Origin: a virus
Taxonomy: Duplodnaviria > Heunggongvirae > Uroviricota > Caudoviricetes
Direction: 5' to 3' (one strand)
IMG/VR virus record: IMGVR_UViG_2537561992_000036
Length of the DNA: 24,178 nt
Position numbers: made by a program
Part shown: positions 18,001 through 21,000 of the stretch, piece by piece
How the letters are laid out: every line of letters begins with the position of its first letter
Position numbering within the stretch: the stretch's first letter is position 1

Positions 18001-21000
18001 CTTGGTGTCATGGATAGCATCCCTTTTACAGTATAACCGTAGCGATTCTCTATTTGATCATCCCATGCATGATATTTTTCTGCCCCAATAATCTCATGAG
18101 CTTTATTTTGTACTTTCTGACCGCCTGCGTCGGGGCCAACAACACCTATGTCAGTACCTAATCGATAGCGAATCCAGTCATTCGCAAGGGAGTTCCATTC
18201 AATACCAGTGTGAGTGTATGCACTAAAAGCTCTGTCTCCAGTTACAGCTGTGTTGTGTCTTTTATTACTGCCTGATGGAGAGTAAATATCTTGCGCAATA
18301 TGGAGAGATAATTGGCTCGAGTCTGAGATATCGTGGCTATATCCCAGAAATAAGCCTTGTGAGTAATCATCTCTGTTTTCATGTTTATTGCCATAAATAT
18401 CATTAAGTATTGGTTGAAACTTCCCTGCATCATCATTTGCTAATGATAATGCAAGGCTGTTCGCGATAGCTGAACACGTGGTAAATGACAGAGCAATAAA
18501 GACGCCAGCGATGACACTTTTTTTCATATGTTATTGTCTTCCTTTTTTTGAATGGTGCGCGTATTTTACATACATGAGTTTGTAATACAAGGTGCGTAAT
18601 CAATATGATGTTTTATAATTGCGTGAGACAATTGATTTATTCGTTTTTTATTGCGGTTTTATTATCTTTTAATGTAACGGTGTTTTTATTAAGTGTGTTT
18701 GCGTGGTGTTTTATGTTTTTTATAATTTTTATTTTATTAAATTTAAAAGCATTAGTAATGGCTATTCTATATAGCAATATAAGAACTGTTACAAAAAAAG
18801 GGGGGGCAATTACAGGTAGTTATGGATGATGAGTGAAACAGATATTGGAGAACCGGGGAATGAATGATGTCTGAGTCTTATATATCAGAACTCCTTCGCT
18901 GTCGCTGGGGGCTCCTGTGCTTATGTCGTTTCCCCGATTCGGTTTTGAACGATTACCGAATGTTGAAGAATTATGCCAAAATATAGAAAGGATTTACTGC
19001 ATGAATACCCAATATTTACAGTATGTTCGTGAGCAACTTATGGCAGCTACTGCTGACTTGAACGGAGCAACGAAAGGCCAGCTCGAAGCCTGGCAGGAGC
19101 ATGCACAATTTGATACTGGTACATACAAACGAAAGAAGCCGCGCATTCTGGATGTGGTAACTGGCAAGATGATTACGCTGGATAATACGCCGACTTCCGG
19201 TAAGCAGTCGTACGCAAAAGGTTCATCCATTGCTTTGGTCAGCCCGGTTGAATTCTCAACCTCTTCATGGCGCCGCGCGGTTTTGTCTCTCGATGAACAT
19301 CAGAAAGCATGGTTGCTTTGGTGTTACAGCGAAAGCGTTCGATGGGGGCATCAGGTCACCATAACGCAATGGGCATGGAGCGAGTTTAAAGATTTGTTAA
19401 GTAACAGAAAAATTGCAGGTAAGACACTGGATCGCCTGAAGACGTTAATCTGGCTGGCTGCACAGGATGTGAAGAGCGAACTTGCAGGGCGTGAGGCCTA
19501 TGAATACCAGACACTGGCATCATTGGTGGGAGTGACAACAAAAAACTGGTCCGAGACATTTACTGAACGCTGGGTTGCAATGAAGCACATTTTTCTACAG
19601 CTTGATAGTGATGCTTTATTGCTTGTGACGAGAACACGTTCAAAACAAAAGGCAGCATTTTTACAGCAAAATATTGCAAAACTGGATTAAAAGCCATATA
19701 CTTCATGCAAATTTGGTATGTTGTAAAAAATGTATAAACCCGCTGCCGAGTGGGTTTTTTTATGCCCTGAGTTGTACTTGTACGGTAAACATGCTGGCTG
19801 CTATGTAATAGAGTTTTTTTAGCCTGTAACCTCTTGACGGCATTGAATTGCTTTTGTTATGAGTTGTAAGCCAATGTTATCATCTTGTATTGGGGTGGTT
19901 ATGAAGGATGGTGCGCTGCTCAGGAGTTCTTCACTTTTTATTGCCTACATGGGATGCCTTGGATGGGGGAGTGCTTATTTCTATGGATGGGGTACTTCTT
20001 TTTACTACGGCTTCCCATGGTGGATTGTAGGTGCAGGTGTTGATGATGTTGCCAGAAGTTTATTTTTTGCAGTTATCGTCATTGCTATATTTCTTATCGG
20101 TTGGGGTATTGGTGTTGTATTCTTTTTCGCAGTGAAAAGAAAACATTCTATGCAAGAGCTAAATGTATTTCGCCTTTATTTTGCTGTGGAATTATTGTTT
20201 GTGCCGGCAATTATTGAGTTTTCTATATTGAGACAGAAGATTCAGGTACCTCTTTTGCTACTGTCAGCAGCGATTGCGCTGGCGGTTACAATTTCGATAA
20301 GATCTTATGGGCGATTTTTATCGGTATCATGCTTCTATGATAAGCCATTTATAAAAAAACATTTTTTTGAGATTGTGATGATTGCTTTTGTGGCATATTT
20401 TTGGCTTTTTTCATTTCTGACAGGATATTACAAACCACAGTTTAAGAAAGAATATGAAATGATTAATTATAATGATGGTTGGTATTATGTTCTTGCTCGT
20501 TATGATAATTGTCTGGTTTTGTCTACTTCTTTCAATGCAGGTAGTAAAAGGTTTGTCATTTATCAATCAGCACAAGATAAGAATCTTCAGGTTGATATTG
20601 TAAGGACCAGAATTTAATTGGCTGCATAAATAATATTTTAAGTTGCAAGTTGGCTATTCGTAGGAATAGAACCTTAGGCATGCTGAATGCGTTTTCTGAA
20701 CATTGTTTTATAAACTGTGTCTGCTTGCTGTTGTGATCCTGCTTTTAGTGATGGTGATGATGGATTTCACCAGCAGGATAATGTTGGTACTGACTGATGG
20801 CGCTCTGGTCTGCGGCATTGTGGTATTGCTGTGGCCGATGATGAAAGAACAGAATGAATAATTCTTGACTTTTTTGTTTACTGTTTATTAAAAAATCAAC
20901 CGCATGGTGAATCCTCCTTGGAGGGGCTAAATGATCGAGTTTTAAGGGCACGTAGCGAGTTCTGTTTGATCATTGCAGAACTTAGCGGGAGGCGCCATGC

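Follow-up and report, generated by a model that had tools for sequence, protein, structure and literature searches.

We analysed a 24,178-nt stretch of DNA from a Caudoviricetes virus (IMG/VR record IMGVR_UViG_2537561992_000036; hereafter the window), in which two long open reading frames (ORF1 and ORF2) lie on the + strand between positions 18917 and 20617. An earlier interpretation made from the sequence alone (the sequence-only reading) had proposed that the two, as a soluble-plus-membrane pair, might form a superinfection-exclusion or abortive-infection module. Our results point to a different arrangement. The interval very probably consists of a late-regulation module, composed of the antiterminator gene Q (ORF1), the promoter pR' and the terminator tR', and of an unrelated single-gene moron (ORF2), the two having come to lie side by side through modular phage recombination. 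As ORF1 belongs to the phage's own late switch and ORF2 is a separate cargo gene, they do not make up a two-gene defence system. The finding thus reveals no new system, the interval being an ordinary lambdoid Q-pR'-tR' module next to a single-gene moron. Both ORFs were recovered in our ORF list, with 5' ends that had been set too far upstream; the corrected starts are 19001 for Q and 19901 for ORF2.

The evidence for ORF1 comes foremost from profile searches. The sequence-only reading had found no recognisable motif in it, but ORF1 scored 306.3 bits with PF06323, whose cut-off is 25, at E=1.7e-91 and over model positions 1-216 of 220; it also matched phrog_304 ('anti-termination protein Q-like') with E=3e-108. 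Q proteins comprise three unrelated families, Q21 (PF06530), Q-lambda (PF03589) and Q82 (PF06323), the last of which is still structurally uncharacterised (PMC9388147); hence ORF1 is a Q82-family protein. The profile search that had been suggested for both proteins therefore ended, for ORF1, in confident homology to a characterised antiterminator family. Searches of NCBIfam and PADLOC with Q gave no match, and a sequence search of the PDB gave two chance-level matches only and no solved structure. The PF06323 match starts at residue 32 of the 257-aa ORF as first drawn, whose GTG at 18917 overlaps the small gene ylcG, read in another frame. Both the NCBI Prokaryotic Genome Annotation Pipeline (PGAP) and the phage 434 annotation start the gene at the ATG at 19001, which is preceded by an AAAGGA ribosome-binding site. 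With this start the Q82-family late antiterminator gene spans 19001-19690 (+) and encodes 229 aa.

The gene order agrees with this assignment. ORF1 stands where a Q gene is placed, with ybcO, rusA and ninH upstream and holin, lysozyme and Rz downstream. The 3.9 kb around both ORFs is 99.7% identical to a lambdoid prophage of enterohaemorrhagic Escherichia coli (EHEC) strains such as O26:H11 11368, and the whole 3.9-kb block is present in ~618 of 5,426 complete E. coli genomes. RefSeq gives the order in O26:H11 11368 as ninH, a 72-bp 'antitermination protein, incomplete', lpxR on the opposite strand, ylcG, 'bacteriophage antitermination protein Q', a hypothetical protein, DUF3927, a frameshifted DUF6645/sialate esterase gene, holin, lysozyme RrrD and a lysis protein. 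The same segment occurs in phage 434 (OL657226), where the ORF1 and ORF2 proteins are both 100% identical to those of the window and were named by the curators a 'Q82-like' transcriptional activator/antiterminator and a 'putative membrane protein', respectively.

From its sequence and setting, ORF1 is the predicted working Q82-family late antiterminator of the prophage. It belongs to the phage backbone and not to the cargo, because a Q82-type Q here takes the place of a truncated lambda-type Q that lies upstream. The earlier view of the Q-to-lysis interval as cargo space accordingly stands for ORF2, which is AT-rich and foreign, but not for ORF1. The base composition divides in the same way: the DNA had been described as AT-richer than the backbone, which is correct for ORF2 (36.1% GC, 30% at third codon positions), for lpxR (39.4%) and for the spacers, but not for the Q gene, with 46.1% GC against 47.3% for the window. 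Compared with known members of the Q82 family, the Q of phage 82 and the 'Q82-like' Q of 434, ORF1 shares the full-length family match, the genome position and, directly 3' of the gene, the succession of a promoter, a promoter-proximal -10-like element and a terminator. It differs from them in that its module adjoins a truncated lambda-type Q and an inserted lpxR, and otherwise in nothing of substance.

The 210 bp 3' of ORF1 contain the late promoter, the -10-like element close to it and an intrinsic terminator. The candidate pR' (TTGCAA, 17-nt spacer, TATACT; 19674-19702, +), found by a promoter scan, overlaps the end of Q. The -10-like element TGGTATGTT (19714-19722, +) sits at about +6 to +14 of the predicted pR' transcript. 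The terminator (19736-19764, +) has a 9-bp stem, a 4-nt loop and a T run; the terminator scan placed the stem-loop at 19736-19757 with the T run behind it, phage 434 annotates a terminator at the same place, and the 60-nt RNA from 19709 to 19768 folds with -15.9 kcal/mol (z = -3.0 relative to shuffles). The terminator that the sequence-only reading had seen between the ORFs is thus real as a predicted element. Given that the spacer holds Q's cognate pR', the -10-like element and the terminator, this 'separating' terminator is the predicted tR', that is, the site of action of Q.

A sigma-dependent pause at a promoter-proximal -10-like element is the site where Q proteins load (PMC9388147), and TGGTATGTT is, from its position and conservation, a candidate pause element for Q loading. 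In E. coli S3 the Q gene is 90% identical (87% for the protein) and is directly followed by holin and lysozyme. There, pR' and the -10-like element (TGATATTTT in E. coli S3) are kept together with Q up to about +17, beyond which the sequence diverges and a different terminator follows. The -10-like element is also kept with Q and pR' in Escherichia albertii, the sequence further downstream again diverging. Two points weigh against these assignments: the pause element was assigned by position and by conservation in three sequences, and the pR' promoter matches at 9 of 12 positions in a region where the count of promoter-like sequences is not above chance.

The upstream remnant provides the other half of the comparison. 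An N-terminal fragment of a lambda-family Q gene (MRLESVAKFHSPKSPMMSDS...) lies at 17353-17424 (+), labelled 'incomplete' by PGAP in O26 11368 and given as a lambda Q N-terminal fragment in phage 434. Positions 17343-17423 of the window align with 91% identity to phage 2B8 at the start of its Q gene. That gene is intact and of the lambda type (PF03589), and the Q and pR' of 2B8 are unrelated to those of the window. Homology to 2B8 stops at 17423 and resumes exactly at 19737, where the terminator stem begins, so that 17424 and 19737 appear as the recombination joints of a Q-module swap. In this swap, as read from the alignment, an lpxR-ylcG-Q82-pR' segment replaced most of a lambda-type Q gene together with its pR', leaving 72 bp of it. 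Since the remnant is the N-terminus of a lambda-family Q, the Q modules have been swapped and ORF1 is the predicted working replacement.

Taken together, the comparisons with S3 and 2B8 indicate that Q and the promoter-proximal recognition region move as one module, with the terminator and everything downstream of it forming a predicted separate module. As a natural case of Q-module swapping the window is a clean one, with a joint exactly at the terminator stem, and it shows that a Q gene close to an older Q remnant can be taken for cargo. The expected course of late transcription follows the usual scheme. In the absence of Q, RNA polymerase would make a leader of ~55 nt from pR' and stop at tR'. 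After induction, Q would load onto the polymerase paused near the promoter and allow readthrough of tR' into the late operon, which comprises ORF2, DUF3927, the sialate esterase pseudogene, holin, lysozyme and Rz.

ORF2 is, judged by its sequence, known rather than new: an identical protein has been annotated before, and the family to which it belongs is catalogued, though uncharacterised. The annotated counterparts are phage 434 gene CPT_434_68 and RefSeq WP_001302581.1, both identical to it. ORF2 matches phrog_1521 (function uncharacterised) with E=2e-154, and in a large protein database PF27470.1 ('TfpB') is precomputed for all 103 homologues as well as for P0001, a protein 100% identical to ORF2. 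The NCBI/RefSeq name 'STM1630 family protein' is attached to one fragmentary homologue, and one Shigella plasmid copy is annotated 'TfpB protein'. The homologues are full-length, have 237-238 aa and 39-68% identity, and align from M15 of the ORF as first drawn; for this reason the start was set at the internal ATG at 19901, which gives a TfpB/STM1630-family predicted inner-membrane protein of 238 aa (19901-20617, +). The papers found under the name 'TfpB' dealt with chemistry, with anaesthesia and with a PilB-like ATPase of Acinetobacter that is unrelated to ORF2.

The family is small. A profile search of 1.84 billion representative proteins returned only 72 relatives, and a genome scan with a first alignment (A1) gave 6 loci. 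Its members were found only in animal-associated Enterobacteriaceae, Pasteurellaceae and Neisseria. Sequence searches of NCBIfam, PADLOC and the PDB with ORF2 gave no match, and neither the solved structures of the PDB nor the predicted viral protein structures of BFVD include a relative of its fold. TfpB/STM1630 is thus a small, structurally unmatched family that is widespread in enteric pathogens, with copies in 434, on the plasmids of enterotoxigenic E. coli (ETEC) that carry the heat-labile enterotoxin (LT), on the Shigella plasmid pINV and in Salmonella.

The predicted architecture of ORF2 is in good agreement with the roughly five transmembrane segments and hydrophilic tail described from the sequence at first. 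Its hydrophobicity profile shows four strong segments, an aromatic/Gly-rich N-terminal helix and a hydrophilic C-terminal tail of ~58 aa. The AlphaFold model, with a mean local confidence (pLDDT) of 80 and a global fold score (pTM) of 0.70, comprises five long helices and, at the C-terminus, a beta region of ~55 aa, whose strands lie between residues 184 and 237. This model was built on the deeper alignment (A2); a model from close homologues only (pLDDT 57.8) was discarded. The positive-inside rule suggests that the N-terminus is inside and the C-terminal beta domain periplasmic, a topology in which the conserved aromatic loop, too, would lie on the periplasmic side. Conservation in the family is strongest in the N-terminal SSxFIAYMGCLGWGSAYFYGWGxSFYYGFPWWxVGxGxDDxARSL and is also seen in YKPQFKKEYE and the C-terminal strands, with variable middle helices. 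In length, conserved regions and beta domain ORF2 is a typical full-length member of PF27470. It differs from most members, which are lone plasmid or chromosome genes, in that it stands in a phage late operon behind tR'.

Next, the distribution of the two genes was compared. ORF2 is present at an identity of at least 99% in ~680 of the 5,426 complete E. coli genomes, mostly of EHEC type, and TfpB-family DNA occurs in 1,197 of these genomes at 1,838 places. The Q family of ORF1 is contained in 74 of 50,697 phage records and TfpB in three (434, and 2B8 twice). Phage 434 is the only one with both, and the other 73 of the 74 Q-family records are without TfpB. TfpB homologues stand behind all three Q families: behind Q82 here, behind Q-lambda in 2B8 and, in other E. 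coli prophages, behind a PF06530/DUF1133 Q plus a methyltransferase gene. Elsewhere they occur with no Q at all. Such copies adjoin sseJ in Salmonella (L004), lie divergently from the LT genes eltAB on ETEC LT plasmids (L008-L011), stand among insertion sequence (IS) elements on Shigella pINV (L018-L019, with matches in 106 Shigella plasmid records) and occur in an E. coli island near a Bor-like gene. Others lie between rpoH and mqo in Haemophilus ducreyi, after guaA in Neisseria arctica and between housekeeping genes in Avibacterium. A recurrent location near virulence loci (eltAB, sseJ, Shigella pINV) was seen in the course of this survey.

In a tblastn comparison of all fetched loci, this Q or its remnants were found only beside TfpB alleles that are at least 94% identical, and the Q-TfpB adjacency, being limited to near-identical copies, therefore marks a single lineage. 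Across diverged lineages ORF1 and ORF2 do not co-occur, the diverged homologues having another Q family or none. The possibility that the two ORFs are independent, which the sequence-only reading had itself allowed for, is borne out by these data; the exclusion or abortive-infection pair that it preferred is not, ORF1 being Q and the pair lacking conserved co-occurrence, as the check in other phages had already indicated with phage 434 as the sole record holding both.

ORF2 also seems to carry its own regulatory region. A block CTCTTGACG...TTTGTTATG upstream of its homologues is kept in 2B8, E. albertii, the E. coli island and the ETEC LT plasmids. In the window it contains a candidate promoter (TTGACG, 18-nt spacer, TGtTATGAG extended -10; 19834-19863, +), the function of which we infer from this conservation. 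The retention of the block in the Q-less plasmid and island copies points to an autonomous ORF2 promoter. ORF2 would then probably be expressed in the lysogen independently of Q and be boosted by Q on induction. In these respects it resembles the morons that lambdoid phages carry between Q and S, for instance the Shiga toxin genes (stx): it is likewise foreign AT-rich DNA between tR' and the lysis genes, and it would likewise lie in the path of the Q-modified polymerase on induction, probably with a promoter of its own. Its neighbours match the layout of Stx phages, with a nanS-p-type esterase and DUF1737. In contrast to stx, the product is a membrane protein and not a secreted toxin, and no tRNA genes were found in the window, unlike in the Q-stx region.

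With regard to its function, ORF2 may be a host-association envelope factor at the periplasmic face of the inner membrane with a possible link to lipid A or outer-membrane remodelling, a proposal that we put forward tentatively as the likeliest of the roles considered; it is probably not a phage-defence partner of Q. The proposal draws on lpxR, the only recurrent neighbour of TfpB homologues, and on the confinement of the family to animal-associated bacteria. In the window lpxR, a gene of the outer-membrane lipid A 3'-O-deacylase family (17568-18527, -; PF09982, E=6.8e-40), forms part of the AT-rich cargo. The two genes recur in three arrangements. In the window (17568-20617) and in phage 434 they are divergent with the Q module between them. 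In other E. coli prophages they are convergent and adjacent, with pmrD beside one pair, and are 68% (TfpB) and 70% (LpxR) identical to the copies of the window. In the Citrobacter rodentium chromosome they are divergent and adjacent, with lpxR frameshifted; here identities are 66% for TfpB and 75% for LpxR. Across these pairs TfpB and LpxR have diverged in parallel. The loci that show the three arrangements are, besides the window, L023-L025 (5001-6919) and L026 (4863-6717). Among complete E. coli genomes 643 carry lpxR, at 645 places, and 620 of these genomes have the block of the window at an identity of at least 99%.

Published data on related genes touch on the same theme. EHEC lpxR is counted in the Ler regulon in a passage of PMC9263587 citing Ogawa 2018. 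The Salmonella gene STM1630 is listed in the literature with genes co-regulated with Salmonella pathogenicity island 2 (SPI-2) and lipid A genes, next to ugtL and lpxO, and its expression in macrophages is lower in D23580 than in 4/74, apparently because the -10 box is disrupted in D23580. A hypermotility of an STM1630 mutant has been reported but was not reproduced with a clean deletion, and it was not used as evidence here.

Several observations weigh against the envelope proposal. Plasmid-borne lpxR copies have no TfpB within 5 kb, and with 1,838 TfpB places as against 645 lpxR places in E. coli most TfpB copies are without a nearby lpxR. The association is therefore suggestive and not obligate; an obligate partnership of the two genes, also considered, was weakened by the same plasmid copies. 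Their adjacency could simply reflect shared residence in AT-rich islets. Clean STM1630 deletions showed neither a motility phenotype nor a defect in macrophage replication in the literature, and STM1630 is placed in the family by gene order and by the NCBI family name. Finally, no conserved catalytic residues were evident in the TfpB-family alignments.

A bolder version of the proposal holds that TfpB/STM1630 is an unrecognised class of single-gene inner-membrane effectors, which modulate lipid A or the outer membrane (e.g. LpxR) or block the entry of competing phages. In this version the class travels with virulence determinants: with LT toxin genes, with sseJ/steB, with lpxR, in the stx slot of prophages and on Shigella pINV. 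We consider it unlikely. Should ORF2 act in remodelling lipid A or in excluding phages, this would be of use for EHEC biology.

A role in phage exclusion by ORF2 alone, to which Q would be irrelevant, ranks next and is also rather improbable. The protein could act as a superinfection-exclusion or abortive-infection factor, with the periplasmic part blocking DNA entry or with membrane collapse on infection. Inner-membrane superinfection-exclusion proteins of temperate phages include SieA of P22, gp15 of HK97 and RexB of lambda. ORF2 is, like them, a prophage-borne predicted inner-membrane protein that is probably expressed in the lysogen. It stands at the classic moron site between Q and S with its own promoter-like region, its small periplasmic domain gives it the shape of several known exclusion proteins, and its family, for which neither a function nor a fold is known, is often carried by mobile elements (prophages, ETEC plasmids, Shigella pINV). 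Set against this, no sequence, profile or fold similarity to SieA, gp15 or RexB was detected, no PADLOC model matched, and the family, which lies mostly outside phages, is represented in just 2 distinct phages among the 50,697 records. In H. ducreyi, Neisseria and Avibacterium the gene stands by itself among housekeeping genes and outside defence islands, and the neighbours of TfpB elsewhere are virulence and envelope genes rather than defence genes.

Two further functions are very unlikely. As the first ORF past tR', upstream of the holin, endolysin and spanin genes, ORF2 might be a late-gene product that serves the phage cycle in lysis timing, holin function or progeny release, and it is a membrane protein as lysis regulators are. 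However, most members of the family are found outside phages, related Q82-type prophages pass from Q to holin with no ORF2 in between, and the annotators of phage 434 assigned it no lysis role.

It is just as doubtful that ORF2 is a type IV pilus accessory protein of the TfpY/FimB kind that would alter host piliation. The idea derives from the Pfam name 'TfpB', from the type IV pili made by Neisseria and Pasteurellaceae, and from the similar length of TfpY-like proteins (235-245 aa). A possible namesake is tfpB, an ORF of the Moraxella pilin inversion region. The genes of TfpY/FimB-like proteins stand immediately behind a major pilin gene. In ~13 distinct contexts, judged from Pfam-called genes, annotations or ORF lists, no pilin gene adjoined a homologue, and 72 relatives among 1.84 billion proteins are far below what would be expected of the widespread TfpY/FimB group. 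The structures also disagree: TfpY/FimB-like proteins carry three helices at the N-terminus and a larger alpha/beta periplasmic domain (PMC11841053), unlike the five helices and ~55-aa beta region of the ORF2 model.

An undescribed two-gene defence or exclusion system formed by the soluble and the membrane protein has a practically negligible probability, for although the genes are adjacent on the same strand and their block is kept at an identity of at least 99% in ~620 E. coli genomes and phage 434, the soluble protein is a full-length Q82-family antiterminator, predicted pR' and tR' lie between the genes, diverged TfpB homologues are never found with this Q, nearly all phage records of the Q family are without TfpB, the closely similar Q gene of S3 leads directly into holin, and a search of the defence models of PADLOC-DB 2.0 gave no match at E<=1 for ORF1, ORF2 or the DUF3927 protein.

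The remaining genes near the module are as follows. The ylcG-family small gene just 5' of Q (18867-18986, +) is called 'YlcG family protein' by PGAP and 'YlcG-like' in phage 434 and is present in the ORF list; the order ylcG-Q recurs in other prophages. Downstream of ORF2, the next gene of the cargo block encodes a small membrane protein of 52 aa with a DUF3927 domain (20703-20861, +; PF13064, E=3.4e-14). In phages 434 and 2B8 this protein is annotated 'TciB' (cell-division inhibition or colicin resistance), and its gene travels with ORF2 only within the near-identical lineage.

Behind DUF3927, the stretch 20872-21075 (+) matches the small-RNA family STnc100 of Rfam below threshold, with 37.5 bits (E=6e-6) where the gathering score is 47. 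A strong terminator (21048-21066) with nine T follows it, just upstream of the sialate esterase gene. The position of the stretch fits the prophage small RNA PasD2; according to a 2026 preprint this RNA is related to STnc100 and lies beside Q, lpxR and the esterase gene. The latter, a nanS-p-type sialate O-acetylesterase gene with the order DUF1737-SASA-DUF6645 (21164-23028, +), has a frameshift that divides it into two ORFs, one of 108 aa and one of 513 aa, and is marked as a pseudogene by PGAP in the reference strain.

Further upstream in the window, an IS3-family element is present in two inverted copies (9236-10449, + and 14164-15377, -), which flank the phage replication genes. Each copy contains an ALIL frameshift pseudoknot (121.5 bits; 9517-9633, + and 14980-15096, -). 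The O26 reference locus carries only one IS3-family copy in the corresponding stretch.

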